Positions 5,101 through 37,722 of a DNA stretch of 64,000 nt are shown here, in pieces. How positions within the stretch are numbered: position 1 is the first letter of the stretch; each line of letters starts with the position of its first letter. Below the pieces are notes generated by a model. That model was not told where the DNA came from. It ran no database searches and saw only the letters and a program-made list of their open reading frames with translations. Made by a program: the position numbers and the translations under genes. Source of the stretch: a virus (lineage: Duplodnaviria > Heunggongvirae > Uroviricota > Caudoviricetes); IMG/VR virus record IMGVR_UViG_3300021255_000114, positions 231,942 through 295,941 of that record. One strand, 5' to 3'.

Positions 5101-5301
5101 TTAATCCGTTTCTTTGTCATCCAAAATGGCGCGTAAATTACATAACGGTACGTTCGCAAACATTGTTTTCAAGGGTCCTTCAGTATAGACGACAACGGCA
5201 CTGCCATCAGGACCGAAGTGCATGACTTTGCCGTTGTATGTGTTCTTTGCACCAATTTTGTTTTCAACTATAACCTGAACGTTTATTCCATTTCTTTCCA
5301 T
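5101..5301 (-). CDS. hypothetical small protein
   Basis: 66-aa ORF. Confidence 0.35.
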   Translation of the reverse strand: MERNGINVQVIVENKIGAKNTYNGKVMHFGPDGSAVVVYTEGPLKTMFANVPLCNLRAILDDKETD

Positions 5302-5963
5302 AATTCAGGAGAATATTTAGCGTGGAGCTGATCCAACCACCACTTTGTTTTAAACTTTACCTTCGGCATTCGCTGTCCCTTCATCAGCGACGAACGCCTA
5401 CATACAACACCTTCCTTGACCATCGGATATTTGCAGTCAGGCTTCGTCCAATCGTTGTTGTATATTTCATCAACGAACGTTTTGGTTAGCGTACCGTGGT
5501 ATATCAATTCAGGAGTCTCTATATTATCGTTTTGGCAAAATATCTCGTAGTATGGTTTCGGTTCAATGTAGCCTTTCTTCTTGAGAAAAACATCAATAAG
5601 CGATAGATGCATTTCATCGTTGGGATCATGAAACCCACAGAAACTGTGTTCGCCATACCATTCGAAATAGAAAGTGATTTCATCCACGCCGGTAAACAAG
5701 CCTTTTTTCTTTGAATTATCCGAAACCAATTGGATTAACGTTTCAGGTAGTTTGGATGCCTTGAAAAAACGCACTGTATCGCCAAACTGTTCATCGGTTT
5801 CGTCGACCATTCGTTTCCTGCTGCCGAATGAGTCAAATATCTTCTTGCGAGGATTGTACTTTACGGCGAAGTTCTGACCGTCCAACTTGTTGAACGCCCA
5901 TACATCCTCTCCGAGAAGCGTACCGTCATCCTGTATTCTGTCTATACTGTCGTAGTGTTTCAT
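5283..5963 (-). CDS. hypothetical protein with a KxDG nucleotidyltransferase (ligase-like) motif
   Basis: The sequence AFNKLDGQNFAV matches ligase motif I, KxDG(x)N/R. Confidence 0.45.
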   Translation of the reverse strand: MKHYDSIDRIQDDGTLLGEDVWAFNKLDGQNFAVKYNPRKKIFDSFGSRKRMVDETDEQFGDTVRFFKASKLPETLIQLVSDNSKKKGLFTGVDEITFYFEWYGEHSFCGFHDPNDEMHLSLIDVFLKKKGYIEPKPYYEIFCQNDNIETPELIYHGTLTKTFVDEIYNNDWTKPDCKYPMVKEGVVCRRSSLMKGQRMPKVKFKTKWWLDQLHAKYSPELWKEME

Positions 5964-7546
5964 GCGTTGTAGTATTTGTATTTTTTCGCATCATACACTT
6001 CGAATCCACCTTCCTTGCGGATTTGGCCAAAGACTTCTTTTATGCCGTTACCACTCCAATAGCCGGTATCGATATCATGTGGATTATCGACTTGGTATGA
6101 AGACTTGTAAACCTTCTGTTCCACAGCGTCGATGTACATACTGAATTCACCTTCGTTAAGGGTAATGGTGTGCTTGTATGAGAAGTTATCCTTGATCCAA
6201 TCGAAATAACGGTTCCCGAATGTAGTGTCAATGCTTATTGAATAGGTGTCCTTGAATATTTCGTCAAGTTCATCACGGGTGAAATGCGTCCATTTACAAT
6301 TCTCCCCACGTCCATTGGTCTTGTACCCAAGCATAAGGATGGGAACGTACATATTTGCCTTATTGATGGCTTTACATATCTTAACGGTTTTTTCAACACC
6401 AAGATATTCCGGAATAATGTGCGCAACAATGTATTTTCTGTTAATTCCACCATCTTCCTTGAAAATATTGTAGAATCTCTCCAAAGCCGGAATATCCTCA
6501 ATCGATGTAACGGATACACCGATACCGTCGACAAGTTCCTTGAATATTCGCTTTAGATTACGGCTTTTCATTATATCCTCGCAATCCTTGATGTTGATTG
6601 TTACATTGGCAATATGCCCGTTGTCCTTAATATATGTTAGAAATTCCTCAAGATGAGGGTAAAGAAGGACATTGCCACCACCAATGGAGAATTCAACACG
6701 ATGCCTTTTCGTTTTGTTTGCATCACCACAGTCATTGATAATCGAATGCAAGAAATTGATGTCAGCGTGCTTGCCATCCATGTTGGAATCCATGAAACAT
6801 TGCGGGCATCCGTGATTGCACTTGTTAGTAACTTTAATATCAATAAGTTCTGGGAATTCAGGAACAGGCTCTCCTTCTTCGGTCATATAACGCATACGTC
6901 CACCGAAACAATGACGTGTCGGGTTATAGTAATCATGATCGTTGTCATTATCTTTTACCACAATACGGTCGTTGGTATCACCATATCCAACCCAATAGTT
7001 GCCGTTTTTGGTTACACCCATGTTTTTATACTTACCGAACAGGTCTATGCCATCAGGATCAGGACATTCGTCATGCCCTTCAATCGTATCATATACAAAA
7101 TCCTGTTCATCGGAACCGCCGACAATGATAATCTCCGGATTCTCAATCACGTTACGAAGGTAATCGACCGATGCCTTAATGTTGTCGTCGAAATACAATT
7201 TTCCACGGCAGTACATCCCAAGCCCTTCATTGTAACCATCATATTCATGGTCTTTCTCAAAATGTTTCTTGACAAGCGGATAATATTGTTTCATTTCAGG
7301 ATAAAATCCGCTCATGATTTCAACAAGTGCATCGTTATACATGATATCGGCAAGGACGTACTTTATTTTCGCCTCGCGAGTTGCAGCAACTGTATTGGTA
7401 CAACGATCATAGTAGTTGCACTCGAAAATATTCAGGTCTTTAAACAATTCCCCGTCGTTACGGTAGATAAGTGAATGCGTGGAACTGCTGTTTGTTGCAA
7501 GTCCTTTACGGAAATTCTTGACATAAATAATTTTCATATTAATCAA
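5960..7546 (-). CDS. radical SAM domain protein with a long N-terminal extension
   Basis: CNHGCPQC matches the CxxxCxxC signature, and GGGNVLLYP is a candidate SAM-binding motif. ATGA start/stop overlap with the neighbouring gene. Confidence 0.7.
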   Translation of the reverse strand: MINMKIIYVKNFRKGLATNSSSTHSLIYRNDGELFKDLNIFECNYYDRCTNTVAATREAKIKYVLADIMYNDALVEIMSGFYPEMKQYYPLVKKHFEKDHEYDGYNEGLGMYCRGKLYFDDNIKASVDYLRNVIENPEIIIVGGSDEQDFVYDTIEGHDECPDPDGIDLFGKYKNMGVTKNGNYWVGYGDTNDRIVVKDNDNDHDYYNPTRHCFGGRMRYMTEEGEPVPEFPELIDIKVTNKCNHGCPQCFMDSNMDGKHADINFLHSIINDCGDANKTKRHRVEFSIGGGNVLLYPHLEEFLTYIKDNGHIANVTINIKDCEDIMKSRNLKRIFKELVDGIGVSVTSIEDIPALERFYNIFKEDGGINRKYIVAHIIPEYLGVEKTVKICKAINKANMYVPILMLGYKTNGRGENCKWTHFTRDELDEIFKDTYSISIDTTFGNRYFDWIKDNFSYKHTITLNEGEFSMYIDAVEQKVYKSSYQVDNPHDIDTGYWSGNGIKEVFGQIRKEGGFEVYDAKKYKYYNA

Positions 7547-10105: not shown

Positions 10106-10807
10106 TTATAATTTACAAGTTTTCCATTTATCTTGCTCTTTAAAATAAATGACCCAATTTACTATATGGGCGTCATTTTCTATTTCCTCAGTTGTGACAA
10201 TGTAATAATCCTCTTGGACACTCTCAACAGTAAGTTGGGAAAATCCATCAGAGATGATATCACCTACTTTAAATTTTGGTTCTATTTTATCAGCAGGTTT
10301 TTGCTCACCCTGCTTTTCATACACAGGGTCGTTTGTATTTATTGGGATATTATCTACATCAGACACAGATACAATTGTTACCGTACCTATACCGAGGTAC
10401 TTATGATCCGAGCAATCATATTCATAATGGTCAGGGAGATTGTCTACACACCTTTCAATATTACCATGCTTTATCTCACTAATCTCAGCTCCCCAAGGAG
10501 TCTTATAATTATGACGGTAAAGACGAGTATAGCCGGATATGAGTGGTTCTGTTTGTTCTTGTGGATTTGCAAGAACACCTTGTTTTTCAAGCCAAGCAAG
10601 AATGTTGTCAATTTCATCGTCATTTCCACAAGCATATCCACCATCTTTCCAAGTCTTTGCTATTTTGATAAGTCTTTTCCTTATCTTTTCATCCTCACTC
10701 TCTTTGAGTTCAGGGAATATTTTAACGGCAACTTCATAATCTGCTGTTCCTGGATTGATTACTTTTGCTCTTTCAAGAGCTTGTTCATATTTTTCTTTGT
10801 AGTCCAT
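10106..10807 (-). CDS. member of the three-copy family
   Basis: N-terminus MDYKEKYEQALERAK...IFPELKESEDEK, plus the GEQKPADKIEPKFKVGD motif. Confidence 0.6.
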   Translation of the reverse strand: MDYKEKYEQALERAKVINPGTADYEVAVKIFPELKESEDEKIRKRLIKIAKTWKDGGYACGNDDEIDNILAWLEKQGVLANPQEQTEPLISGYTRLYRHNYKTPWGAEISEIKHGNIERCVDNLPDHYEYDCSDHKYLGIGTVTIVSVSDVDNIPINTNDPVYEKQGEQKPADKIEPKFKVGDIISDGFSQLTVESVQEDYYIVTTEEIENDAHIVNWVIYFKEQDKWKTCKL

Positions 10808-10829
10808 TTTATTCTCCTTTCTGTGTGAT

Positions 10830-11078
10830 TTAATCTATCTTTTCTGTTATACATTCTAATTCTTCATAAGGCACTTCATTATCTTTTATATACAGACGTT
10901 TTGCCTTATCATCTGCTATATAATCTTGATTGGAATATACATTATACTCTTCCCATGAGTCAATGCCTTCGCCCTTGATGCCCACAATGACGTGGTACTT
11001 GTGCCTTCCTCTTTTATAAAGATAATCGTCATATATCAGCAAGATAATTAGAACCGTGAACACTATTGCCGTTAGCAT
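10830..11078 (-). CDS. small membrane protein
   Basis: The N-terminal stretch MLTAIVFTVLIILLIY reads as a transmembrane helix. Confidence 0.45.
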   Translation of the reverse strand: MLTAIVFTVLIILLIYDDYLYKRGRHKYHVIVGIKGEGIDSWEEYNVYSNQDYIADDKAKRLYIKDNEVPYEELECITEKID

Positions 11079-11628: not shown

Positions 11629-12276
11629 TTAAATTATAATTATTGGTAATAGATTTCCACCGAAGAAATCCTCCATATATTCTTTTTTGTGGAAATACAC
11701 ATTGCCGGTATGGTCTTTATAACCCCCGTAAGTTTTAATACTGTGTGTATCCTTTACTACCCAGGTTCTTTCATCTTTGTATGACAATACTCCGTTGTTA
11801 TCTTTAACGATGTTCACGAATGGATGACATATAAGATAATATGCACTATACAACTTGTTTCCGGAACCAACCATAAAAGAGAAGTTGGCAATATTGTCTA
11901 TCTTCTCCGGAAACTCTGTGACAATGGTGATAAACACATTGAACCATTCCTTTGCGGAAATATAATTGCAATATTCCAAAGTAGGCATAAACACATTATC
12001 CGGAACAATTTCTTTGAGTGCATTATATTCCGGTTCGGAATGTTGTATGATATAATTACCGTGTCCCTCTCTTGGAAAGTTATCTTCCCTACATAGTTCA
12101 TATGGGGGATTTAATGGAAGATAATATCCCTTTCCATTCTCTTCTCTCAACAAGATACAAGTCTGAGTACGACGGTCTTTGTACTTTGTTTCAATCCAAT
12201 GATAACCATACTCGTCTGATTTATCTTGTTTGTCAAGCAAAAGGTCCGGAAACTTTATATCTCGTATCTTATTCAT
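11629..12276 (-). CDS. hypothetical protein
   Basis: 215-aa ORF. Confidence 0.55.
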   Translation of the reverse strand: MNKIRDIKFPDLLLDKQDKSDEYGYHWIETKYKDRRTQTCILLREENGKGYYLPLNPPYELCREDNFPREGHGNYIIQHSEPEYNALKEIVPDNVFMPTLEYCNYISAKEWFNVFITIVTEFPEKIDNIANFSFMVGSGNKLYSAYYLICHPFVNIVKDNNGVLSYKDERTWVVKDTHSIKTYGGYKDHTGNVYFHKKEYMEDFFGGNLLPIIII

Positions 12277-12935: not shown

Positions 12936-13292
12936 TTATTTATACATTCCTTCAGGTGCTTCAAGTGCAAGGCCTTTTTCTATTAAGCCACGGTAGTCAA
13001 AATAGTGTTCGTTGAGCCAATCAACATAGGACGGAATAAGCAAACTGATTCCACTTTTATCAGGAATATATCTAGGGTTTTCCTTTATTTTGTCAAACTC
13101 AACCATTTCGTCATTCGTCATACTTGACATTGGACGAAGGTAAGGTTTACAATTATCTATACACGGATGATAATCGAACGTATAGATAGTAGGGCTATCG
13201 TCAAGAGACTCACGATTTTCTTTAACGAAAATCCCGTAAGTTAACCTTGAACAAAGGTCTTTCAACAACAGTTCTTTTTCTTCTTGTTTCAT
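12936..13292 (-). CDS. member of the six-copy small-protein family
   Basis: Same conserved termini as 12532..12924. Confidence 0.6.
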   Translation of the reverse strand: MKQEEKELLLKDLCSRLTYGIFVKENRESLDDSPTIYTFDYHPCIDNCKPYLRPMSSMTNDEMVEFDKIKENPRYIPDKSGISLLIPSYVDWLNEHYFDYRGLIEKGLALEAPEGMYK

Positions 13293-13936
13293 AATTCTAT
13301 TTCTTTTTCCTTCTTATAGTTATCCGTCTTTATTTCAATCAAAGACTGTAACCTCTCCTTATGCTTTTCAGCCTGAGGTGTTCCAGCAAAATTATAGTAA
13401 TTGAAAAGTATCACCAACATCTCGTCCGTCACCTTGCAATCGGGATATGAATAATAAACATTGGCCGTTAAAAAGTTAGCCTTGGATTTGAAGTGCATGC
13501 GCGACTTATTGTCGAAATCTCTCCAATACACTTCACGACCGTTGATGATGATAGAAAATTCGTTATGCACGAATTTCTGTATGGTCATAAGCCTCTGCTT
13601 TCCGTCGATGACGAGGTTGACCTGGTCGTCTCGATTGGCGTAGTCCTTTATTTCCTGCACAATAACCAAACTGTCAATAGGTTTCTCGAGCAGAATGGAC
13701 ATAATGAATTCACGCTGCTGGACAAGTTCCCACACGTAGGGACGCTGAAGGTTGATGCCGTATGTAGGTAAATAGACATCGAAATCATATATCTTATCCC
13801 CAGGGCCCGGATTGTCCAATGTATCAACAAGACGAAAATCCAAAAGAACCCCCTTGTTAAGATGGATTTCCTTGGGAATTCTATGTAAATTGTTACATTG
13901 TTTTATCTCGTCTAACAAACTCATATCTTTTTTCAT
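13289..13936 (-). CDS. DUF262 domain protein (ParB/GmrSD N-terminal-like)
   Basis: LQRPYVW matches the (F/L)QRxYVW motif and LVIDGKQRLMTI matches DGQQR. Confidence 0.6.
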   Translation of the reverse strand: MKKDMSLLDEIKQCNNLHRIPKEIHLNKGVLLDFRLVDTLDNPGPGDKIYDFDVYLPTYGINLQRPYVWELVQQREFIMSILLEKPIDSLVIVQEIKDYANRDDQVNLVIDGKQRLMTIQKFVHNEFSIIINGREVYWRDFDNKSRMHFKSKANFLTANVYYSYPDCKVTDEMLVILFNYYNFAGTPQAEKHKERLQSLIEIKTDNYKKEKEIEL

Positions 13937-14847: not shown

Positions 14848-15123
14848 TCATTTTGGTTCGAACTCTATTGTATATCTTATAATCAAGCCTGTTGCATTTG
14901 CAACTTCCTGCATGCCTTTCCTCGAAACTCGGTACACGAAATCGCCGTCGTATCTGTTTCGTTCCGCAAGGTCAAGCAAGCACAATTCCTCCCAAACAGT
15001 ATGGGGCTCATTGTATACGGAATAGTTACGATATGCGTGGTATACATATCCATCATTGGACTTGTTGTCCATTCCGAGCGCATGTTTCATACGCTCAAGT
15101 TGTTCTTCACTCAATTCCATCAT
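14848..15123 (-). CDS. hypothetical protein
   Basis: 91-aa ORF. Confidence 0.45.
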   Translation of the reverse strand: MMELSEEQLERMKHALGMDNKSNDGYVYHAYRNYSVYNEPHTVWEELCLLDLAERNRYDGDFVYRVSRKGMQEVANATGLIIRYTIEFEPK

Positions 15124-16119
15124 CTAAAATTTACGTTTGATAATGTCAGCGGACAACTTGTTCACTGTTTTATTCACTGCTTTCTGCTCATTAGGCGACA
15201 GTTCATTGTACTCAGGGTGATCCTTGACAAATTCCTCAATTACGTCAGCGCAGTACTCCTTGATAAGCAGCCCAAACTGCTTCGGCATTTCAAGTTCACC
15301 AAGATGGCTCATGACGTTGCCAAGTCTCGACTCGGTTACATAGTCCCCCACGCATGAAACAAGCTTGCTGCATGTATCCGAATACACGACATCGGCCTTC
15401 TTATCTGATTTCTCAAACTCATTGAACTTCGGGTTCTTGTTCTTGATGATGATTCGTTCACCATTGGCAAAACGAAGGTCGGAAACGGGTTTGATGACCA
15501 CACCTTCGGCAAAGTTATTCTCGATTCTTGGATAACCAAGACGCTTCCCAATGGTGCTGATGAACACGGGATTGTAAGCAAGACACTCATCAAGCGTTCC
15601 ACGGAACAACTCCTTGTTATAGAAGAAGCCGTACTTCTCGAACAAATCGATACATTCGTCAACACCAAGATACATGGTTTTGTCCGGATATGTCACAAGG
15701 ATGTCGAAAGCGTAGAATTCGTGGTTCGGGGTATACTGAATAGCCTTCTGAATTTTTGGTACATTAGACTCGTATCCATCATATCCACCACCGAACAACT
15801 CTCCGAAAACCTGAACCGAAATAATGGAGTTATCACCGCATTTCAATTTATTGAATACTGAAATGACTTTCTCCTTAAGGTTCTGGTCGGCAAACTCCTG
15901 AAACCCGTAGAATTTGTCGGAATCGGTGAGGACGGAACTACGCTTGCCGGTAACAATTGACATACCGTCGGTAATAACCGAGACATTACAACCGTCAACC
16001 TTCTCAGAAACGGAAAAAAGCATATTGGGACAGCCTAAAAAATTAAGCGACTCTCGTACCTTTTCGATGAAGGGCTCCCTGTAACTGTTCTCAATAGAAC
16101 TGTATTTCTTAAATTCCAT
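15124..16119 (-). CDS. rnl2: RNA ligase, T4 Rnl2-like
   Basis: N-terminus MEFKKYSSIENSYREPFIEKV compares with T4 Rnl2 [27 protein letters not shown] fits motif I. Length about 330 aa. Confidence 0.8.
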   Translation of the reverse strand: MEFKKYSSIENSYREPFIEKVRESLNFLGCPNMLFSVSEKVDGCNVSVITDGMSIVTGKRSSVLTDSDKFYGFQEFADQNLKEKVISVFNKLKCGDNSIISVQVFGELFGGGYDGYESNVPKIQKAIQYTPNHEFYAFDILVTYPDKTMYLGVDECIDLFEKYGFFYNKELFRGTLDECLAYNPVFISTIGKRLGYPRIENNFAEGVVIKPVSDLRFANGERIIIKNKNPKFNEFEKSDKKADVVYSDTCSKLVSCVGDYVTESRLGNVMSHLGELEMPKQFGLLIKEYCADVIEEFVKDHPEYNELSPNEQKAVNKTVNKLSADIIKRKF

Positions 16120-18175: not shown

Positions 18176-19042
18176 TCAGACATCCTGTTCCCCTCCTGTA
18201 TATTGATCACCGTCGGTGCAAGTGATACATCCTTTGGAATTTGTGCATGTCGAGCAAGACAGGGCATCCGTATACTCATAGAAGCAAGGGTAATCACTTG
18301 GATGTGGAATTTCCTTACGCTTGAATCCGGATTTCAGGAACATGCTTACCATCTTCTCCTGTTTCTCATTAAGTTCATATAGATGGGGTGGATAGAGATT
18401 GCCATACGTTTTATTATAGAACTCCTCAAATTCCTTATAGGTGAAGCCGAATTTTTCTTCATCCGACGAACCGGTAAGACCGTCTGAAGGTGTTTTTTTC
18501 ACAAGGTATTCGGGCAATCCCAATGCAAGTCCGAGTTCAATAACCTCCGAAACATGCATATTGATGATAGGCTCGACATCGGCTACAGAATCGCCCCATC
18601 TTGTGCAGAATCCAAGCAAATATTCATCAAGATTTGATGTTCCGATTACACGACCGTTCACTGATTGGGAAACAGCATATAATGTAGACATACGGAGTCT
18701 CGGGCCGAGGTTGATCTTGGTCTGTTCGCTTGCCTTTATTCCCTGGCTCTGCATCTGCATGATGATGTTGGAATACGCCATCTGCATGTTTACCTCAACG
18801 TATTTGATTCCAAGATGACGGCATACGGCGTAACTGTCAGTAATGTCATTCTGCTCCCCGTTAGGCATAAGCACACCGATAACACGGTCTTTGCCAAGTG
18901 CCTCAACGCACAGTGCGGCTACCACTGTCGAATCTTTTCCAGCTGAAATTCCGATAACCGCTTTACACCCATCACCATTTATTTCAAACCATTCCCTAAT
19001 CCACGTTATCAGATAATCTTTGTAACGTTCAATTTTTGTCAT
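18176..19042 (-). CDS. nadE: NH3-dependent NAD+ synthetase
   Basis: GISAGKDS reads as the PP-loop; NLDEYLLGF, RWGD, TPSDGL and FGFTYKEFEEF match NadE blocks. Confidence 0.85.
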   Translation of the reverse strand: MTKIERYKDYLITWIREWFEINGDGCKAVIGISAGKDSTVVAALCVEALGKDRVIGVLMPNGEQNDITDSYAVCRHLGIKYVEVNMQMAYSNIIMQMQSQGIKASEQTKINLGPRLRMSTLYAVSQSVNGRVIGTSNLDEYLLGFCTRWGDSVADVEPIINMHVSEVIELGLALGLPEYLVKKTPSDGLTGSSDEEKFGFTYKEFEEFYNKTYGNLYPPHLYELNEKQEKMVSMFLKSGFKRKEIPHPSDYPCFYEYTDALSCSTCTNSKGCITCTDGDQYTGGEQDV

Positions 19043-20373
19043 TTTTTTCTTATCTTTTTTAAAATGTTTAAAATATCTTTAATAATACTTTTACTATTAT
19101 ATTTTATATAAAATAGCGGAACATTATTTATTTCACATTTATATTTTTTGTTTTCGTCTAATTCAATAATATGTTTATATCTATTAAACGCCCATTCATA
19201 TCCATAGCCGGCAAAATCTACCGGAAAATAATGTTGTTCACCTTGACACTCAATTGCAATGTTATATTCTGGTAAATAAAAGTCAAGATGTTGCAATTCT
19301 AACCATGGTAAATGTTTACTTGTGGCAGGATGAATAAATTTAATTAATAGTTTATTAAGTAATAATGAGGTTGTTTCTTCTAATTGCGATTGTCTACACT
19401 TAGGACAGCCCTGTTTTCTTTTGGTGTGATGGTATGGTGTTTGCCAGAATTCTCCGTGTTCCGGACAGATAATACATACAGGTATATCTGTGTTTATGTA
19501 TTTTACTTTGGAGTAATCATACCTGTCTCCGTGGACTTTTCGCGCCTTTTCCATAAACTCTTCTTTACTTAACTTACGATTCCCATAACAATCTGGGCAA
19601 CCTTTACCTTTTAGATGGTTCGAAGGTGTTTGACAGAACTCACCATGTTCCGGACAGATAATACAAACTTTAGTTTTAACATTTACATAATCAGTTTTTG
19701 AATAATCATATCTGTCTCCATGTACTTTACGTGCTTTCTCAATAAATTCTTCGGTGTTTGATCGGTTTGTGCCTGCACATTTTGGACATCCGTTTCCATG
19801 TAAATGTAACCCTAATTGTTGTATAAAATCTCCGTGTATCGGGCAAGTTATGATAATTTTATCTTTAGCCTTTGCTTCCGTTACTTTATTATAGTTATAT
19901 TTACCACCGTGTGTTTTAACACATCTTTTAATTATTTCTTCTTTTGTTAAAACATATCTTTCACTAGTTTTCTCTAAAGCGCATTTTGGGCATCCGTTTC
20001 CATTTAAATGCGAATTCGGGGTTTGTAGAAAATCTCCGTGTTTTTTGCAAATAATAGTTAACTTTTTGTTGGTTAGAGAATAATTTGCTTTTGAATAGTC
20101 ATACTTATCTCCATGCACTTTTTTAGCTTTTTCAATGAATTCATCATTAGATAATGAACGTTTTGATGATTGTACAATACGAGAACAATTAGGACAACCT
20201 TTACCTTTTAAATGATCAGCAGGTCTTTGCCAGAATTCTCCATGTTCCGGACAGATGATACAAACCTTAGTATGATTGTTAACATAGTTTACATTACCGT
20301 AATCATATTTATTCCCGTGTACTTTTCTACTTTTCTCTTCAAAATTTCTGTTTTTATTACATTGTTCGCACAT
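19039..20373 (-). CDS. zinc-ribbon repeat protein (about six DUF4379-like units) with a C-terminal restriction-endonuclease-fold (D..ExQ) domain
   Basis: Repeated unit KVCIICPEHGEF.Q.P..HLKGKGCP.C. C-terminal FDFYLPEYNIAIECQGEQHY. Paralog of 1..1262. Confidence 0.7.
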   Translation of the reverse strand: MCEQCNKNRNFEEKSRKVHGNKYDYGNVNYVNNHTKVCIICPEHGEFWQRPADHLKGKGCPNCSRIVQSSKRSLSNDEFIEKAKKVHGDKYDYSKANYSLTNKKLTIICKKHGDFLQTPNSHLNGNGCPKCALEKTSERYVLTKEEIIKRCVKTHGGKYNYNKVTEAKAKDKIIITCPIHGDFIQQLGLHLHGNGCPKCAGTNRSNTEEFIEKARKVHGDRYDYSKTDYVNVKTKVCIICPEHGEFCQTPSNHLKGKGCPDCYGNRKLSKEEFMEKARKVHGDRYDYSKVKYINTDIPVCIICPEHGEFWQTPYHHTKRKQGCPKCRQSQLEETTSLLLNKLLIKFIHPATSKHLPWLELQHLDFYLPEYNIAIECQGEQHYFPVDFAGYGYEWAFNRYKHIIELDENKKYKCEINNVPLFYIKYNSKSIIKDILNILKKIRKK

Positions 20374-20387
20374 TTATGTTAAATTAA

Positions 20388-20568
20388 CTCAATTATTTTC
20401 GTCTATTTCATAAGGCAAATTTTCCCAGTATTTTTTCATGGATTCCGATATTTTCTTTTTGGTCTCTTCATCCATTTTCTTGCCATAACGATGATTTTTT
20501 GCACCAAGTTTGGCTTGACGCATTTTTTCCTTTGTTTCCTCGCTTAATTTCCTTTGGGTTCTTGCCAT
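20388..20568 (-). CDS. small NUMOD3-like DNA-binding protein (59 aa)
   Basis: Unlisted ORF MARTQRKLSEETKEKMRQAKLGAKNHRYGKKMDEETKKKISESMKK; LS.ETK.K...AK.G repeats of this kind occur in homing-endonuclease DNA-binding modules. Confidence 0.35.
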
Positions 20569-20610
20569 TGTACTTTATTGAACTTTATTTAACTATAAAT
20601 ATGTAGTAAA

Positions 20611-22116
20611 TTAGAAATCTGGATGCAAACGATTACGGATTTCGGTAAGTGATTGTTCCTGAACCATTTTACCATCTTTGAAGTAGAGTATGTAAGCCGA
20701 ATCCTCACCATGAAGAGGTTCGCGTTCCGTTGGGTCAATTCCATCAGCAAATTTAAACATACCCGTTTCAGGGTCATTCCAAACTTCACAGCACCCACGC
20801 TGACTTTTTTTGAACGAAAAACCGGATTCACGATCAGTCTTTGGATCTTTAAAAATTGGATAGAATTTCCCATCAACAATACCTCCAGTTGCTTTAATTG
20901 CGATTGAAAAAGTGTCACGAGTTAATGGATGGAAACAATTATTAGTATCTTTATAACACGTAAAACTAAATGAACCGGCACCGAAGTATATGTTATTTGC
21001 GGCAAAGCCTTCAAGCATTAAACGTTTATATATGGTAGCAGAAATGCTCGGTAATACTCCGTCCCCGTAAACCACACCAATATGCGGGTCAAGGACTTTA
21101 TAACCCTTGGTATTGACGGTTCCACCAAAGATATTCCAAAGCGATTCAACGGTCTTAACTGAAATATCGATAATATCACCACTATCGGGACGGATAAGCA
21201 GTTTGCCGTTATGGGCAAGGATTTCGTCTTTAAGCGACGGAATAATATCATTCACCATTCGCCAATAATCGTAAGTATCTGATACCATGGAGAATGAAGC
21301 ATTTGGATATACTTCTGTAAGAAGGCGTTTCACCATTGCCCGTTCATCACCTGTAATGGCGAAGTCAGCGGCCATAACACTGTGCTCAGTACTGATAGCG
21401 TTTGTAGCAAAATTATTCTCGCTGTTATTCTCGTTATAGTAGTGTTCGATGTATTTGACGGCGGGAATAGTAGCTGTTCCGCTGAATGAAGCAAGCCATG
21501 CGGCTGAAGCCTTCTCAGCCTCCTGAAGCGAACTCATGCCACGGAAACCGAAATCGGAAATGGCTTTGCTATGCGGAACATTATCGTCCACTGTTTTACC
21601 GTACCATTCATCAACAACATCACGGTAGATATTACCTACGGTGGCATGGATGCAGGGTTTCCAGAGTTCAGACGACAAAAGGCTCTCCACCCACTGTACA
21701 ACCCAGGCGAAATCAGGGTGCGTGTTCGTAATTTCGATGCACGGGATACCCATGTTTACAACGGAACCCTCAGGTAATGCGCGGATTTCAAGCGGCAGAT
21801 AACCTAAGCGATGCAGATCACGTACTTTTTCAGGGTTGTAATTACCCGCGCCGAACATGCTATCAACCACACGGGTGTACTCTTCCATCATTTCATCCTC
21901 AGGGACGCTGAAGAAATTCTCGTTGAAATGGTCGATAAGGTATTTCTTGATGAATCCCTGCAAACCGAAAAAGACCATCTTGTCCAACTCAGGTATACGG
22001 TTTCTGCGAGGGGTGAAATAAGACCAAAGTTTAGTCAAACCTTTTGGGTACTGTTCCGCATGGGTTTGCTTGTAACCGTCTGACAATAAGAGACTTATAG
22101 TTTCGTGATTTTTCAT
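20611..22116 (-). CDS. nadV: nicotinamide phosphoribosyltransferase (Nampt)
   Basis: SDGYKQTHAEQYP, DFGFRG, IRPDSGD, VYGDGV and YFGAGS align with human and bacterial Nampt. Confidence 0.9.
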   Translation of the reverse strand: MKNHETISLLLSDGYKQTHAEQYPKGLTKLWSYFTPRRNRIPELDKMVFFGLQGFIKKYLIDHFNENFFSVPEDEMMEEYTRVVDSMFGAGNYNPEKVRDLHRLGYLPLEIRALPEGSVVNMGIPCIEITNTHPDFAWVVQWVESLLSSELWKPCIHATVGNIYRDVVDEWYGKTVDDNVPHSKAISDFGFRGMSSLQEAEKASAAWLASFSGTATIPAVKYIEHYYNENNSENNFATNAISTEHSVMAADFAITGDERAMVKRLLTEVYPNASFSMVSDTYDYWRMVNDIIPSLKDEILAHNGKLLIRPDSGDIIDISVKTVESLWNIFGGTVNTKGYKVLDPHIGVVYGDGVLPSISATIYKRLMLEGFAANNIYFGAGSFSFTCYKDTNNCFHPLTRDTFSIAIKATGGIVDGKFYPIFKDPKTDRESGFSFKKSQRGCCEVWNDPETGMFKFADGIDPTEREPLHGEDSAYILYFKDGKMVQEQSLTEIRNRLHPDF

Positions 22117-24394: not shown

Positions 24395-25234
24395 TTATTC
24401 GGAAGAAATGTTTGAAATTTTTTTAAGAAAATCCTTTTTTACCTCTTTTTCCGTAAACTGACCGGCCGGTGATACCACCCATTTATTACGTTCAAACGTA
24501 CCGTATTCAGGTGATTCCAATTGAATTTTCTGTTTATAGCATACACGACCGAATTTCAACCCATCATCATATTCATACCAATTGATATTGCATTTGTCAA
24601 GTAGGAGTTGCACTTGTTCATCACTGTGTTTGCTCACTAGTTCCTTATGGGGAAGGTATGTTTGCGCCGCCTGTTGTTTGGAATTGCGGATGCAGTCCAA
24701 CTGGCGATATAGGAACCAAGCATACGCATCGTTCTCGTTAGGCACATTCCATGCCTTGCAGTCGAATTCATACAGCGGAGCATTCTCAAGTGTATCAATC
24801 GCCATATCAAGGATATCGTTACCGGGAAGAGAATCAGGAATCTTCTCGAGTCTGTTCGCAGTCATAATGTTGGTGAATTTGGTTGCGGCCATTGATGCGA
24901 CAATAGACTGAATTTTGCATAATCTGTATCCGAAAAATGATGTGACCTCGGAATTTTCGTCTTTCGGAATATCGGATACGACAAGTGAAATCTCGTCACT
25001 TTGACAATAGCCGAACTTGCACCCTTGTACATTGGCACACAGGTATTGCATTGTCTCGTTCATTGCCTCGACGAACTTCTTGTCGAACGGTTTTTCGAAT
25101 TTGTTCTTGATTTTCCTTGAGAAATTCTTTCCATCGACCATTATACAAATATAACTGTTAGGTTCAAGCCTGTGGTCTGATGCCGAACGGAGTCGTTCGC
25201 ATTTCTGTTTAAGTGTTTCCTCTATTTTTTGCAT
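24395..25234 (-). CDS. Thg1-like protein (tRNA-His guanylyltransferase family, 3'-5' polymerase)
   Basis: IMVDGKNFSRK...KPFD compares with Thg1 VVRLDGRNFHRF...KPND, and YCQSDEISLV with YGQSDEYSFV. Confidence 0.75.
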   Translation of the reverse strand: MQKIEETLKQKCERLRSASDHRLEPNSYICIMVDGKNFSRKIKNKFEKPFDKKFVEAMNETMQYLCANVQGCKFGYCQSDEISLVVSDIPKDENSEVTSFFGYRLCKIQSIVASMAATKFTNIMTANRLEKIPDSLPGNDILDMAIDTLENAPLYEFDCKAWNVPNENDAYAWFLYRQLDCIRNSKQQAAQTYLPHKELVSKHSDEQVQLLLDKCNINWYEYDDGLKFGRVCYKQKIQLESPEYGTFERNKWVVSPAGQFTEKEVKKDFLKKISNISSE

Positions 25235-30773: not shown

Positions 30774-31487
30774 TTATAGTGTGAAAAGCCTTTCGGTTGC
30801 CAATTTTGTTTTGTGAGGGTTCTGTGCGGTCTTGACATCCATCTGCCATATGCATTTGAAATCATCGGGCATTTCGTATTCGGAAACAAATATTGTGTGC
30901 CCCTCTTGCTTCTTCTCCCTACACCACTGATAGAACCTCCCATAATCGAAATTCTTGCTCGTCACATACTGCTTTGTGTTCTTATATGGCGGGTCGCAGT
31001 AGATAATGGACTCCTTTGGTATCAGTAATTCATCGTAGTTTTCTGCATAGAACTCGGTTCCGCGCAGGAATGGCACCTGAGCCAACGTGTTTTTGATATT
31101 CTCTCCGATATAGTCTCTCCCCTTGACATCGTGTCCCGAATAGCCGCCGTCGAAAAACCTTCCATTGAAAGAACCCATGAATCCGACCCATCCTATAATG
31201 TAGTCAGGGTATCGTCCGTCTTTTTTGTTGTAACTGTCTCTGACGTCGTTGTAGAAATTACGCATGATGAGTCTTGGGACATCCGGGTCGTCGTGACACA
31301 ACTCTTTCCACATGGCAATGAGGTATCTGTTATTGTCGCTTGCCATTCTGTACCCTTTGACGTGTTCGAGAACGCTGCAACTGCCGCAGAATGGCTCAAC
31401 CCAATACTGTTGAGCGTCTTTTCTTTCCGCGAGCATTATTGGAAGGATATACTTTACGTATCTTCGCTTGTTTCCCTGATATTTCAT
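30774..31487 (-). CDS. dam: DNA N6-adenine methyltransferase (Dam/D12 class)
   Basis: WVEPFCGSCSV reads as the FxGxG AdoMet-binding loop, and IIYCDPPY supplies the DPPY motif. Confidence 0.8.
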   Translation of the reverse strand: MKYQGNKRRYVKYILPIMLAERKDAQQYWVEPFCGSCSVLEHVKGYRMASDNNRYLIAMWKELCHDDPDVPRLIMRNFYNDVRDSYNKKDGRYPDYIIGWVGFMGSFNGRFFDGGYSGHDVKGRDYIGENIKNTLAQVPFLRGTEFYAENYDELLIPKESIIYCDPPYKNTKQYVTSKNFDYGRFYQWCREKKQEGHTIFVSEYEMPDDFKCIWQMDVKTAQNPHKTKLATERLFTL

Positions 31488-31585: not shown

Positions 31586-32410
31586 TTATTTGCCAAGATT
31601 GATGAATGGGACACTATTACCCATCATATACTGTGGAAGTTTACCATCCCACTGCGTAACTGCTTGCCATTCAACAAGTTTCTGATTCTGTGCAAGGGCA
31701 TTCGCCTTGATACGCATGGCCTCTGCTTCAGCCTCGGCAGCAATCCTGGTTTGCTTGGCCTTCTCCTCAACCTGAATGGTAACATTTTTGGCTTTGAGTG
31801 CTTGCTGCTCAGCAACCTGTTTATCCTTGATGGCCTTCTCGAAATCATCGTCGAAATCGATATCCGTCAGTTGGAACTGAATGTTCATGAAATAGTTGCT
31901 GTCAAGGGTGTTTCGAAGCATCTTCTCAATCTCACGACGGACATCGTCACGATTCTCGACGATTTCTGTTGCAGCGAAATTACCGAAAGCTTCTTTCATG
32001 GCTGAACGGATAAACGGAACCACAATACGGTTGTGATAGTCCTCGCCAACATTGCGCATAAGACCACTGACATTCTCGCGAACAAGGTCATAGTTGATGG
32101 TGTAGTCAACTGTGGAAGTCTGCACGTCACGTGTGTAACTGTTCTCCTGACCGTCGAACTTCTTCTGCTGAATGTTTACCTTCTTCACGCTCTGGATGAA
32201 GGGCCACTTGAAATGAAGACCGTCGCCGACAACCTCACTGTTCATTTTACCGAAGGTGGAAATGACACCGCGCTCGGTCGATTTAATTGTGTACGTGGAG
32301 CCGAAGATAAGAATCAGCGCGACAAGGCCGATAACGCTCCACTTGATAACTTTTGGCATAAAATTCTCGTTGTTGTTCATTTTTATTTTATTTGTTTTAA
32401 CGTTTAACAA
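31586..32410 (-). CDS. SPFH/band-7 (prohibitin/HflC-like) membrane protein
   Basis: An N-terminal transmembrane segment is followed by ERGVISTFGK..., and the C-terminus is an Ala/Glu-rich coiled coil (QQALKAKN...AEAEAEAMRIKA). Confidence 0.7.
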   Translation of the reverse strand: MLNVKTNKIKMNNNENFMPKVIKWSVIGLVALILIFGSTYTIKSTERGVISTFGKMNSEVVGDGLHFKWPFIQSVKKVNIQQKKFDGQENSYTRDVQTSTVDYTINYDLVRENVSGLMRNVGEDYHNRIVVPFIRSAMKEAFGNFAATEIVENRDDVRREIEKMLRNTLDSNYFMNIQFQLTDIDFDDDFEKAIKDKQVAEQQALKAKNVTIQVEEKAKQTRIAAEAEAEAMRIKANALAQNQKLVEWQAVTQWDGKLPQYMMGNSVPFINLGK

Positions 32411-34582: not shown

Positions 34583-36862
34583 TTATTTTTTCATTAATCC
34601 GTGTTCGGGGTCATAGGCATAAAGGCATGTTATAAAGGGTGTTTCGCTTGACAAAGCAAGTCTCCAGTACATATCAAACAATTTCGACCATCTTGGTCCC
34701 TGTTTGTTTTTTCTGTACCCTCTCGCAGATTTGTGACGGTATTTTTCTTGAAGTTCCGGGTGTTTATCTATATAATCATACATATACCGTGTTTCTCCAT
34801 CCCTAAACAGATTCTCGTCCAAATAATTGGCTATGATTGGTTCCTTCATCCTATCAGCAATTATGAAACGTTGGTTGTTTGGGTTTCCTCTTAAAGTTTG
34901 CCTTTGACTTATCCGCTTAATGTTATCGTCGCCCTTTGATGAATACAGGTATACCATATTGTGCAGGACCTTCTGTGATTCTTTTTTGCATTCATCGCTG
35001 TATTTTTCATATTCTTTTTTATAGGACGAATCATTGTATATCGCTTCGAACAAGGCAACTATTTCCGATTCATTATATACTTTTTCAAACACAACATTCT
35101 CCATGAACAACCGACGTCCAAGTAAACACAAACCGTGGTTGTATTTAGCGCGAACAGCCGCATACTCCGAGTTGTCAAAACCGAGCTTTTTGTTCGTGTC
35201 AAACGGGAGTATGTATATGTTGGCCACTTTTTCTCCACCCCAACGGTTAACACGCCCCAAACCCTGTTGGAATTCGTGCATCGGAAGATAGGCATCAGTA
35301 TAGAAATTATTCGCTGATATATCATGGCCGGTGGTTACCAGGTTTGTACAAACCATCACACCTTCTTCATTCCTGTTTTTTGAGAAATGGCGATACATAT
35401 CGGTAATATGCTTATTCATATCATGAGTGGTGTAATTGCTATGGCATAGCACGGTATTATTTTTGGTGTTTTTGGCTTTAACACCGTCATAGAGTTTTTG
35501 GGACGTTTTTACACCGTTAACCATTGCGATGGAATTATTCTCCATAGACAAATCAAACGTCTCGAGTTGATGGAAGATATAACGTTTATCCTGCGCACCT
35601 TTATAATGCCTCGGCTCAGTGTATACATGCCTTTTAAATGATTTATACAAGAGCGATTGCGGTGTTGCGCTGCAAAGTATTGTTTTTGCATTATAGTTTA
35701 ACCTTGACAAATTCATTAATTGGAATGCGCGATTACACCCGCTTCTATCCATATATGTATGATATTCGTCAAAAGCAACCGTACGGACCATAACCTCGAA
35801 GGCCATTTCCTTCATGTCATTGTCCCTTATAAAGGGATTGAAGAAATTATCTATGTTTGTGACGATTATATCGTTGTTAACATTATCCTTCAATCCTTGA
35901 ACCCAACCTCCTCCTTTTTTATAATATAAACCTAGTGTTATCTTAATATTATACACTTTTAAAAGATTGGCCAATGAACCATAAAGCGCATCACAAAGGT
36001 TGTCTGTGGGGCAGACGAACATCGCCTTTTTACCTATGGCAAGTACACTACGAAGCAGGATGTCGGTTTTCCCGAATCCGGTATTCTCGTTTATTTCGAA
36101 TATGTGAAAATTGGAATTGGCAATTTTTCCCACATATTCGCTTTGAATATTGAAACGGTATGAATCATATCCGTCGGGCTTTTGTATGTCGGAAACACCA
36201 AAAGTAACAGGCAGTTTCAAACCATTGTCCATAAATGTATCGTCAATGATGTAATCCCGGTCCGATTTTGCAATTAAAGCAAACAGCGTTTGATACGGCA
36301 CATCCTTTATATCACTTTTCGCAACATCATCCTGAAACAGATACAAGCATTCGTCTGAAAAGGTGGTGTCAGTTTCTGAGATATTATTTACCTCCAACTG
36401 GAAATCGGGATTCTTCCTATTGTTGATTTCAACCAATTCATGTATAACAGGCAATATTGCAGATTCCTCGGTCTTTATTTTTTTAAGTGCCGAATCAATC
36501 TTGAACGACAACCCGCAATAAGGATGATGTCCCAACAACACTCGCATGACCGTGGAATACATCAACCTGACTGAATTCATCTGCGCATAATCACAATTGG
36601 CCTTTGGTTTTATGTAAAGCCAAAATATCAAGGCACTTGAAACATTGTGCAGCACCTCAGGTGTTTCATCGTTTTTCAAATAAGCCTGAAACTCGTTCAT
36701 TATCTTTCCAAGGTCATGGAACAATCCTACCGTATATGCACATTTACGCCACGTTTCATTGGTAATATATTTTCCCGCAAGGAATTTGCAGTTGTCAGCA
36801 ACCGTTGTGGAATGCTCCATAAACGATATAACCGGCTTTGTTTTTGCTATCAGTTCTTTCAT
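34583..36862 (-). CDS. cas3: Cas3 HD nuclease-helicase
   Basis: HD-domain residues MEHS...LFHDLGK...GHH. Helicase Walker A NTGFGKTD. DExH box AFDEYHTY. Motif VI QQGLGRVNR. Confidence 0.85.
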   Translation of the reverse strand: MKELIAKTKPVISFMEHSTTVADNCKFLAGKYITNETWRKCAYTVGLFHDLGKIMNEFQAYLKNDETPEVLHNVSSALIFWLYIKPKANCDYAQMNSVRLMYSTVMRVLLGHHPYCGLSFKIDSALKKIKTEESAILPVIHELVEINNRKNPDFQLEVNNISETDTTFSDECLYLFQDDVAKSDIKDVPYQTLFALIAKSDRDYIIDDTFMDNGLKLPVTFGVSDIQKPDGYDSYRFNIQSEYVGKIANSNFHIFEINENTGFGKTDILLRSVLAIGKKAMFVCPTDNLCDALYGSLANLLKVYNIKITLGLYYKKGGGWVQGLKDNVNNDIIVTNIDNFFNPFIRDNDMKEMAFEVMVRTVAFDEYHTYMDRSGCNRAFQLMNLSRLNYNAKTILCSATPQSLLYKSFKRHVYTEPRHYKGAQDKRYIFHQLETFDLSMENNSIAMVNGVKTSQKLYDGVKAKNTKNNTVLCHSNYTTHDMNKHITDMYRHFSKNRNEEGVMVCTNLVTTGHDISANNFYTDAYLPMHEFQQGLGRVNRWGGEKVANIYILPFDTNKKLGFDNSEYAAVRAKYNHGLCLLGRRLFMENVVFEKVYNESEIVALFEAIYNDSSYKKEYEKYSDECKKESQKVLHNMVYLYSSKGDDNIKRISQRQTLRGNPNNQRFIIADRMKEPIIANYLDENLFRDGETRYMYDYIDKHPELQEKYRHKSARGYRKNKQGPRWSKLFDMYWRLALSSETPFITCLYAYDPEHGLMKK

Positions 36863-36901
36863 GGTGTAAATATACTATTTTGAATTGAAATATTGCTTGA
36901 A

Positions 36902-37660
36902 ATTTTTAATCAAATAAAATTATATTATTAAAGAGTAGTTGTTATCACTATGTAAAATGGTACGTAATTGTTAATCAATTGGAAATTATATTATTAAATA
37001 GTTGTATGCCCTACAAAGCATTGATTCCATAAAATTGTTAATTGAATAAAGATTGTATTATTAAAGAGTTGACTTGATAGCAATGATGACATCCCATAGA
37101 TTGTTAATCAATTAAAAATCATATTATTAAAGAGTCTCGTGTTGCTTCGTTCACTGCCTGGTCCCATTGTTAATCAAATAGAAATTATATTATTAAACAG
37201 TAGGCTGTGGTAGTTATGCCAATGGCAGTATATTGTTAATCAATTAAAAATCGTATTATTAAACAGTAATAACGGTGAACTTGTGGAAGCTGTAGAATTG
37301 TTAATCAATTAAAAATCGTATTATTAAACAGTCGGTGGGAAGATTTGGGGCGCGTTTCAAAATTGTTAATCAATTAAAAATCGTATTATTAAACAGTGTT
37401 AACGGTATAAGCGTTATATCATACGCATTGTTAATCAATTAAAAATCGTATTATTAAACAGTTCGCTTAATGAACAAATTCAATAAACTAAAATTGTTAA
37501 TCAATTAAAAATCGTATTATTAAACAGTGGTGCGCTTACCCTATGCAACTCCCTTCTTATTGTTAATCAATTAAAAATCGTATTATTAAACAGTTGTTAA
37601 CGGCATTTCCGTGATTAGTTACGCATTGTTAATCAATTAAAAATCGTATTATTAAACAGT
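36902..37660 (-). CRISPR. CRISPR array with 12 repeats of 36 bp (plus strand ATTGTTAATCAATTAAAAATCGTATTATTAAACAGT) and 11 spacers of 29-31 bp
   Basis: Seven perfect repeats (37232-37660) sit at the cas6-proximal end. Five progressively degenerate repeats (36902-37201) sit at the cas3-proximal end. A 62-bp AT-rich leader lies at 37661-37722. Read on the minus strand the repeat starts ACTGTTTAAT, which resembles type I-B repeats. Confidence 0.9.
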
Positions 37661-37722
37661 ACACTCCTTATAAAGCATTGTATTTATGTGCCTTACAAAG
37701 AGTTTTATATTTAAAAAATGCA

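Follow-up and report, generated by a model that had tools for sequence, protein, structure and literature searches.

A Namat-Lineage Transferase and an NH3-Dependent NadE of a Jumbo Phage Suggest a Nicotinate Branch of Phage NAD+ Reconstitution

Introduction

Depletion of NAD+ is among the commonest outcomes of bacterial immunity, with Thoeris, DSR, SIR2-HerA, aRES and others as examples. Three phage counter-pathways are known, named NARP1, NARP2 and NARP3. NARP1 consists of Adps and Namat (Osterman et al. 2024; Namat structure PMC12774641; Adps structure PMC13586617). In NARP1-AP, this pair is complemented by Adpp, a Macro-domain ADPR-1''-phosphate phosphatase (ADPR = ADP-ribose; bioRxiv 10.64898/2026.01.28.702374). 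NARP2 contains a Nampt and an Nmnat, for example NadV/NatV of Vibrio phage KVP40, and NARP3 is built from the PnuC transporter and a bifunctional NadR-like enzyme (PMC13464706). Here we report on a 64-kb stretch of phage DNA (positions 231,942 to 295,941 of IMG/VR record IMGVR_UViG_3300021255_000114, in the following called the window), in which a transferase of the Nampt/Namat family ("NadV") is encoded close to an NH3-type NAD synthetase, NadE. The original prediction had taken the transferase for a Nampt that makes nicotinamide mononucleotide (NMN), so that the following step, catalyzed by an NMN adenylyltransferase (NMNAT), would be missing. Our analysis does not support this assignment: the protein groups with the Namat lineage, the Asp residue that reads the amide is absent, and the genes around its relatives are those for PncA, Adps and NadE and almost never one for an NMNAT. 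We consider it probable that the two genes belong to a deamidated (nicotinate) branch of phage NAD+ reconstitution, in which one encodes the transferase and the other the last enzyme, and not to a Nampt-NMN pathway that has lost its NMNAT.

Deamidated intermediates, a nicotinamidase and NadE as the last enzyme are also the features of the Preiss-Handler salvage pathway (PncA, PncB, NadD, NadE). It has been annotated in the "Kuafu" jumbo phages of Bacteroidota (PMC11662467), with which the window phage shares the habitat and probably the host phylum. Because this survey of gut jumbo phages annotated NAMPT, pncA, pncB, nadD and nadE genes and a Preiss-Handler pathway in phages of Bacteroidota, a nicotinate route in such phages has already been proposed at the level of annotation (PMC11662467). 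Neither NadE nor a nicotinamidase is mentioned in the papers on NARP1/NARP2, on the structures of Namat and Adps and on NARP1-AP, nor in Aravind's survey of viral NAD+/ADPr (ADP-ribose) systems. In the literature that we searched, we found no prior account of a Namat paralogue that has a switched pocket, occurs in strict association with Adps, PncA and NadE, and would give nicotinate adenine dinucleotide (NaAD) as the product.

Results and Discussion

We first describe the lineage of the transferase. Both domains of the Nampt/Namat superfamily were detected above the curated cut-offs, namely the N-terminal NAMPT_N domain (PF18127, 2.2e-12, 47.5 bits, cut-off 25) and the type II phosphoribosyltransferase (PRTase) barrel (NAPRTase, PF04095, 2.4e-24, 86.8 bits, cut-off 20.8). 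The NCBIfam model NF006629 was matched with 457 bits (cut-off 405), while the PncB-type nicotinate phosphoribosyltransferase (NAPRTase) models TIGR01513, NF009131 and NF006696 gave 25-29 bits against cut-offs of about 300-500 bits. A phmmer comparison with the solved structures of the PDB returned 396 bits for the Namat of SPbetaL1 (9w5x/9w5w), 324 bits for 9ke8, 181 bits for the Xanthomonas Nampt and about 174 bits for human NAMPT. The protein is 42.6% identical to the SPbetaL1 Namat, compared to 29-33% identity to Nampts. In a neighbour-joining tree, into which we included Nampts from phages that carry an NMNAT beside the Nampt (Xanthomonas phage LucasX, Synechococcus phage B23 and the KVP40-like Vibrio phage D479), the window protein falls into a clade that is characterized by Ala or Ser at one pocket position (see below). 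This Ala/Ser clade is the sister group of the canonical Namats, which have Asp or Glu there, and is placed far from the NARP2-type Nampts. Judged by its sequence, the transferase belongs to the Namat (NARP1) lineage and not to the Nampt (NARP2) lineage. The NCBIfam name was dropped as evidence for the substrate, since the SPbetaL1 Namat, a proven nicotinamide enzyme, is likewise labelled "nicotinate phosphoribosyltransferase".

The residues of the active site fit this picture. The "selectivity clamp" with which Namat recognizes adenine is retained in the form of R40 and G-S-F392, where Nampts have GGG or GGA; the R40A/F392G double mutant is the most harmful clamp mutant of the SPbetaL1 enzyme (PMC12774641). 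The catalytic core is kept as well (D13, Y15, F189, R192, R306, D308, D361, R399 and D400), and the catalytic His is found within an invariant TEH motif. The SCH motif of Namats, defined as GSXxXxXxTRD (PMC12774641), is altered. It reads GSFTYQYNTRD in SPbetaL1 and GSFSFTCY-KDTNNCFHPL-TRD in the window, so that a 10-amino acid (aa) insertion precedes TRD and the aromatic residue at position 7 (Y396) is out of register. Insertions of 9-15 aa inside this motif are found throughout the Ala/Ser clade.

The binding pocket for nicotinamide differs. At the position of Namat D215, which is D219 in the human enzyme, the window protein has an Ala (motif GTAT), while all aligned Nampts and Namats show Asp or Glu. 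Among the 120 best homologues we counted 68 with Ala, 52 with Ser and none with Asp at this site. When 188 unique sequences of the Ala/Ser clade were compared with 71 unique canonical Namats, the ligand-contact positions that strictly separate the two sets were S190 (to Gly), D215 (to Ala/Ser) and A242 (to Ser); Q185A, H207W, R299H and Y394F also differ between the clades, and the catalytic core is invariant across the comparison. A lack of catalytic residues on alignment, which would speak against the original prediction, applies in part to a Nampt function, with Ala in place of D215/D219; all other catalytic residues are intact. An exchange of the human residue, D219S, is said to turn the substrate preference towards nicotinic acid in work of Khan et al. 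from 2006. In a tabulation of human mutants, D219S is listed as a switch of the substrate affinity and D219A as a loss of activity (PMC4919578), and Asp219 was described to define the substrate specificity of NAMPT (PMC7096376). In the SPbetaL1 Namat, Asp215 forms a hydrogen bond to nicotinamide, and its exchange in D215A lowers NAD+ formation about 8-fold (PMC12774641). With its nicotinamide pocket rebuilt (Ala for D215, Ser for A242, Gly for S190), the transferase probably accepts nicotinate.

For the analysis of the gene context, IMG/VR was sampled twice with 10-kb flanks, and Adps, PncA-like, NadE and Macro proteins were identified in the loci with local profiles. A recurring cassette, which we had first seen on contigs that carry homologues of the transferase, was found to be typical of the Ala/Ser clade. 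An Adps gene is present in 79 of its 80 loci and in 78 of the 80 loci of Asp-type Namats. A PncA-like gene (78 of 80) and NadE (75 of 80) occur in nearly all Ala/Ser loci and in not a single one of the 80 Asp-type loci. Macro genes were detected in 51 and 10 loci, respectively. The genes of the Ala/Ser loci lie on one strand and nearly always in the order PncA, Adps, transferase, (Macro), NadE; all seven incomplete loci stop at the edge of the contig on the side of the missing gene. All five cassette genes are also present on MT835544, a GenBank contig of a human-faecal phage. The NadM-type NMNAT profile matched in one of 89 Ala/Ser-type loci and in none of the 80 Asp-type loci. The Nampt phages LucasX, B23 and D479 have an Nmnat within about 4 kb of the Nampt gene.

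The PncA-like proteins carry the Pfam Isochorismatase domain and, among solved structures, are most similar to nicotinamidases (P. horikoshii, M. tuberculosis, yeast Pnc1). As read from the alignment, the catalytic Cys is kept together with the Asp and the metal-binding Asp-x-His...His-Cys motif. Against the SPbetaL1 Adps, the Adps-like proteins reach 108-129 bits, at 33-35% identity and with the catalytic Lys162 conserved; against any solved Prs they reach at most 50 bits. Adps and Prs were distinguished by the scores to the SPbetaL1 Adps sequence, the published Adps structures not being among the PDB matches. Individual homologue clusters of the Ala/Ser clade comprise as many as about 2,000 sequences from public gut metagenomes. 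A bacterial origin of the clade, which we considered for one cluster member located on a 1-Mb contig, was rejected in view of the phage gene content in all 80 IMG/VR loci and on the long ENA contigs.

The canonical Namats have another gene neighbourhood. In SPbetaL1, FADO and MrDarsey, Adps is the only one of the partner genes. The jumbo phages of loci L181 and L183, whose neighbouring Thg1 is 50-51% identical to that of the window, have a Namat with Glu at position 215, the canonical SCH motif and an adjoining Adps, and no PncA or NadE beside this pair. Prevotella phage Lak-A2 also shows Glu-215 and the canonical motif; Adps, PncA and NadE were not found within about 12 kb. In L181 (18425-18940) and L183 (15724-16239) we noticed, a few kb from Adps-Namat, a 171-aa CTP_transf_like protein that has HxGH altered to TIAH or SLAH and additionally contains the motif ISSTRIRE. 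It looks like an adenylyltransferase of the PPAT or NMNAT-like type. Some cassettes contain an added NADAR domain. Around the cassette of L016 we saw a phage SIR2-family protein and a NADAR domain (5885-6628 and 11910-12251), and around that of L005 a Macro-domain protein and an ADP-ribosylglycohydrolase (10429-10914 and 14905-15732).

The second enzyme, NadE, was assigned by Pfam NAD_synthase (PF02540, 5.3e-49, 167 bits) and TIGR00552 (167.8 bits, cut-off 63.65). It has no glutaminase (nitrilase-like) domain. The best solved relatives are the NadE proteins of P. horikoshii (2e18, 131.8 bits) and F. tularensis (3fiu, 110.9 bits). The C-terminus (18176-18300) carries a Cys-rich tail of about 40 aa (CSTCTNSKGCITCTDG) that is not present in most homologues; NadE of L010 has a different and longer C-terminal extension.

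From the family membership, the residue changes and the gene associations that we observe, we infer a substrate specificity and a pathway chemistry. In the cassette of the relatives, the nicotinamidase PncA would convert nicotinamide into nicotinate, and Adps would make ADPR-PP (ADP-ribose pyrophosphate) from ADPR and ATP. The transferase would then join nicotinate and ADPR-PP to give NaAD, which NadE would convert with NH3 and ATP into NAD+. Neither NMN nor NMNAT would be involved, because the transferase would deliver NaAD directly and NadE would amidate it. We favour this deamidated version of NARP1 because the Namat lineage and the lost amide-reading Asp are found together with a nicotinamidase, Adps and NadE. 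Why nicotinamide should be deamidated only to be re-amidated is a matter of speculation; the pyridine ring could be trapped as a charged acid, the pathway could match hosts with high PncA activity, or it could use the nicotinate that is abundant in the gut. With somewhat less confidence, and only tentatively, we propose that gut phages run a fourth NAD+ reconstitution route of this kind, "deamido-NARP1", made of PncA, Adps, an Asp215 to Ala/Ser Namat paralogue with an insertion at the clamp, and NadE, of which the window phage would have a two-gene derivative that leans on phosphoribosyl pyrophosphate (PRPP) and NadD of the host.

If this is true, a NARP1 that was rewired via nicotinate and NaAD is in use in a large group of gut phages, whose hosts are probably Bacteroidota. 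The transfer of ADP-ribose to nicotinate would be a new enzymatic reaction, achieved by a natural substrate switch at a residue known from human NAMPT (Asp219), and the frequent lack of an NMNAT beside phage "NadV" genes would be explained. It would also call for caution, since metagenomic surveys and NMN bio-production screens annotate such genes as NAMPT and count them as NMN producers.

The window phage itself departs from the cassette. We searched the 64-kb window and about 17 kb of extra flank (81 kb in total) of the 373-kb phage contig, after having walked about 10 kb beyond each edge of the window with the edge proteins. Adps, PncA and Macro genes were not found in these 81 kb. Within the window, phmmer and tblastn with the SPbetaL1 sequence and profiles made from jumbo-phage Adps gave no Adps, and a profile made from jumbo-phage PncA gave no PncA; the 10-kb extensions on either side contained no NAD-related genes. 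The absence of both Adps and a nicotinamidase beside the transferase and NadE is the oddity of this window. With full-length L010-type Adps as the query we reached only other phages (205, 365, 351 and 408 kb), and no member on a contig of 373,160 bp was present in the clusters closest to Adps of the L010 and L005 types. The Adps profile search for the rest of the 373-kb genome was swamped by an abundant 277-aa family. Because the searches and cluster listings led only to other phages, Adps is likely absent from the 373-kb genome. The closest IMG/VR relatives, L010 and L011 (77% identity, contigs of 227-235 kb), have the order Thg1, a 286-aa homologue, PurA-like, PncA, AAA, NadE, transferase, and a divergent Adps 9.5 kb downstream, past ClpP. 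This layout indicates that the cassette was already dispersed in the lineage of the window phage.

We also looked for an adenylyltransferase. The claim that none is recognizable in the three ORFs (open reading frames) upstream of the transferase stood up to family profiles, with no Pfam, NCBIfam or PHROGs match in any of them, and the absence could be extended to the window and its flanks. No window ORF of at least 60 aa contains an HxGH motif, and Pfam scans of the remaining ORFs of this size, which were concatenated to a length of at most about 970 residues, gave no CTP_transf_like, NUDIX, PnuC, Pribosyltran or Isochorismatase domain. In particular, Pfam detected neither NadD/CTP_transf_like nor the NARP3 domains (PnuC, NadR-like) in the window. 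When the window and its roughly 17 kb of flank were translated in six frames and searched with a NadM-type profile derived from three phage NMNATs, there was no match.

In the searched sequence, the window phage shows only a pared-down and rearranged pair, split by the homing endonuclease. The transferase would convert nicotinate and PRPP of the host into nicotinate mononucleotide (NaMN), the host NadD would turn NaMN into NaAD, and the phage NadE would finish the synthesis. To our knowledge, NadD is near-universal in bacteria. The use of PRPP has a precedent, as the SPbetaL1 Namat keeps a PRPP-dependent NMN synthesis in vitro (PMC12774641). This Preiss-Handler shunt with PRPP, host NadD and a Namat-derived first enzyme is the more likely mode for the window phage; alternatively, it would use the direct NaAD route if a divergent Adps lies elsewhere in the 373-kb genome.

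Among the described systems, NARP1 is one of the closest. The window transferase is of the Namat lineage and has kept the catalytic core and R40/F392, and an Adps gene stands directly upstream of the transferase in 79 of the 80 related loci. It differs from NARP1 by the exchange of Asp215 to Ala/Ser, by the changed A242 and S190 and by the SCH motif broken through the insertion. Furthermore, the cassette of the clade adds the nicotinamidase and NadE, which were never seen beside the canonical Namats sampled, and the window phage lacks Adps in its 81 kb. The Macro gene between transferase and NadE in many related cassettes is the same kind of add-on as Adpp in NARP1-AP; however, the window has no Macro gene, and the published NARP1-AP has an Asp-type Namat and neither PncA nor NadE. 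NARP2 has a first enzyme of the same superfamily and likewise aims at a higher NAD+ level during infection, but the window protein is outside the clade of the NARP2 Nampts, has GSF for GGG and no Asp215, and no Nmnat was found in the searched sequence. If the window enzyme uses PRPP, the route equals the Preiss-Handler pathway with the NadD of the host. The first enzyme is nevertheless of the Namat lineage and not a PncB-type NAPRTase, and the relatives encode Adps rather than NadD, which suggests that they make NaAD directly from ADPR-PP, with no adenylyltransferase. The NadE*/NadM route of Francisella tularensis (NaMN to NMN to NAD) has a similarly short single-domain NadE, but the window has no NadM partner, its best NadE relative is of the archaeal type, and the genomic context is another one.

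Several points weigh against the deamidated reading. The human D219A mutant, which has the residue of the window protein, is just reported as inactive, and nicotinate is not mentioned as a substrate in that tabulation (PMC4919578). The nicotinate specificity is read from one class of residue and the gene context. At 70-80% identity, the 80 Ala/Ser loci collapse into about 5-7 independent lineages and do not stand for 80 events, so that the association of the cassette genes could partly reflect shared ancestry. The full logic of the cassette is borrowed from the relatives, because the window phage is without Adps and PncA in 81 kb, and no Adps of its own appeared in the nearest clusters. Finally, the window NadE has the PP-loop SAGKDS. 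Of 82 phage NadE sequences, 79 show SGGxDS, and the three with SAGKDS all derive from the window phage itself. For this reason a partial decay is a real alternative: after the loss of Adps and nicotinamidase from an ancestral cassette, the split transferase and a NadE with an altered PP-loop would contribute little or nothing. In favour of decay, every other lineage in the roughly 90 loci of the clade has Adps, PncA or both within reach, an orthologous Adps did not turn up on a contig of the right size, the cassette is already dispersed in L010 and L011, and a homing endonuclease has inserted between the two genes. Nevertheless we regard decay as unlikely. Both ORFs are full length with every other catalytic and ligand residue intact, and the same sequence and order recur on three of four independent contigs with the identical protein. 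The endonuclease lies between the genes and not inside them, NadE being start-stop coupled to the inserted 444-aa ORF, and both enzymes could still function with PRPP and NadD of the host. Some active PP-loop enzymes, such as CysD, also have a residue other than Gly at position 2 of this loop.

The classical reading, in which a working Nampt makes NMN from nicotinamide and PRPP, the NMNAT is encoded elsewhere in the 373-kb genome or supplied by the host as in NARP2, and NadE independently boosts the deamidated pathway of the host, appears distinctly unlikely to us. It can draw on Pfam, PHROGs and NCBIfam, which place the transferase in the Nampt/"nicotinate PRTase" family, on the annotation of such genes as NAMPT in the gut jumbo-phage survey (PMC11662467), on the NMN that the SPbetaL1 Namat still makes from PRPP in vitro (PMC12774641) and on the 292 kb of the 373-kb contig that lie outside the searched sequence. 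Yet the transferase is placed with Namats and not with Nampts, and its amide-binding Asp is replaced by the Ala that is listed as a loss of activity in the human enzyme. An NMNAT was detected neither in the window and flanks nor in 88 of the 89 related loci, although 94% of the true NARP2 Nampts co-occur with an Nmnat, which is usually close, as in LucasX, B23 and D479. In addition, it gives no reason why PncA and NadE are so strictly linked to the clade. Another alternative is a convergence on NMN, with NadE working as an NMN synthetase (NaMN to NMN) so that both phage enzymes feed an NMNAT of the NadM/NadR type. Because the window NadE has its second-best solved relative in the Francisella enzyme, an NMN synthetase whose NAD synthetase activity is only marginal (PMC3376133), it may amidate NaMN, and this, too, speaks against a purely NaAD-based scheme. 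As a complete pathway we hold the convergence on NMN for very improbable. The best relative is archaeal-type, and the assayed member of this type, the single-domain NadE of M. jannaschii, is NaAD-specific and has no NMN synthetase activity (PMC3376133). NadM and NadR were not detected in the window, NadM-type matches are confined to the single related locus mentioned above, and Adps in the relatives points to a dinucleotide product, i.e., NaAD.

The locus and its neighbours are listed in Table 1. As predicted, the Nampt-family and NadE genes are about 1.5 kb apart; the coordinates proved exact, both genes are on the minus strand, and the distance is 1.57 kb. The gap of 1,568 nt is filled by the NUMOD3 ORF and the 444-aa ORF. 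The latter contains DUF723/DUF4379 zinc-finger modules in repeat and a nuclease-like C-terminal domain, matches endonuclease, HNH and homing endonuclease families of PHROGs (best 1.9e-102) and overlaps with its stop the start of NadE. NUMOD3 is a DNA-binding module typical of homing endonucleases, and the 59-aa ORF is part of the same mobile insertion. A paralogue of the 444-aa ORF is found at the left edge of the window at 147-1262(+), as a 451-aa gene call on the contig (L090 10564-11919). Because of these homing-endonuclease-like ORFs in the gap, the overlap with NadE and the paralogue, we think that the transferase and NadE genes were probably neighbours once and were parted by a mobile endonuclease.

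Table 1. Coordinates of the NAD genes and of other features of the window.
Feature	Size	Position	Strand	Assignment or remark
Nampt/Namat-family transferase ("NadV")	501 aa	20611..22116	-	Pfam NAMPT_N + NAPRTase
NadE, single-domain NH3-type	288 aa	18176..19042	-	Pfam NAD_synthase + TIGR00552
Homing-endonuclease-like ORF	444 aa	19039..20373	-	Pfam DUF4379 + DUF723; PHROGs
NUMOD3 ORF	59 aa	20389..20568	-	Pfam NUMOD3 2.8e-11; PHROGs homing endonuclease
ORFan	159 aa	22118..22597	-	ends 1 nt ahead of the transferase start
Cys/His-rich ORFan	110 aa	22612..22944	-	upstream of the transferase
ORF	286 aa	23022..23882	-	syntenic neighbour
Thg1-like tRNA-His guanylyltransferase		24395-25234	-	
Two RNA ligases		15124-16119, 5283-5963	-	one Rnl2-type with T4 Rnl2 C-terminal domain
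Divergent adenylosuccinate-synthetase homologue (PurA-like)	396 aa	25915-27105	-	Pfam 1.3e-28
Cas3-like HD-helicase		34583-36862		
Cas6		37723-38439		
GmrSD_N/DUF262-like protein		13289-13936	-	
Radical SAM protein		5960-7546	-	
Dam-type N6-adenine methyltransferase		30774-31487	-	
SPFH/Band 7 protein		31586-32410	-	

The three upstream ORFs gave no further hints regarding an NMNAT. The 159-aa ORF has no homologue in 180 related loci and was not an NMNAT in any test that we ran; its AlphaFold2 single-sequence model was unusable (pLDDT, the predicted local distance difference test score, 44.8). The spacing of 1 nt makes a co-transcription with the transferase possible. The 110-aa ORF has no homologue in the related loci either. 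For the 286-aa ORF, tblastn revealed a homologue of 28% identity between Thg1 and the PurA-like gene in L010/L011. A scan for promoters and terminators gave counts that were not above those of shuffled sequence, and no terminator-like site was seen on the minus strand from 22597 to 18176.

The notion of intact NAD-metabolism genes in a phage was borne out by the source, a 373-kb jumbo-phage contig. The identical transferase is encoded on a 373,160-bp ENA metagenome contig, on which the window corresponds to about 183,286-247,285. Three of the four contigs with the identical transferase show the same gene order; two of these three are shorter contigs from other samples. No GenBank phage matched the locus in a megablast search. 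A jumbo phage of Bacteroidota is suggested by Por-secretion tails, lipoprotein signals and a G+C content of about 39%.

Among the other genes, Thg1 adjoins NARP1-type genes also in Bacillus phage FADO, L005, L010, L181 and L183. This recurrence suggests a counter-defence island in which the rebuilding of NAD is combined with tRNA repair. The best solved relatives of the PurA-like protein are PurA proteins (about 54 bits), and such a gene was seen near the NAD genes in the window and in L005, L008, L010 and L022. About 8 kb to the left of the window, the same contig carries an IS605 OrfB/TnpB-like gene with a Cas12f1-like_TNB domain (L090 19489-20492). Finally, we noticed a phage CRISPR-Cas-like locus at 34583-40536, in which the ORFs at 38429-39529 and 39526-40536 may be other Cascade subunits. 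In its array (36900-37669), a direct repeat of about 36 nt (ATTGTTAATCAATTAAAAATCGTATTATTAAACAGT) occurs about 12 times, once every 65-67 nt, and several of the spacers are alike (TGTTAACGG...).

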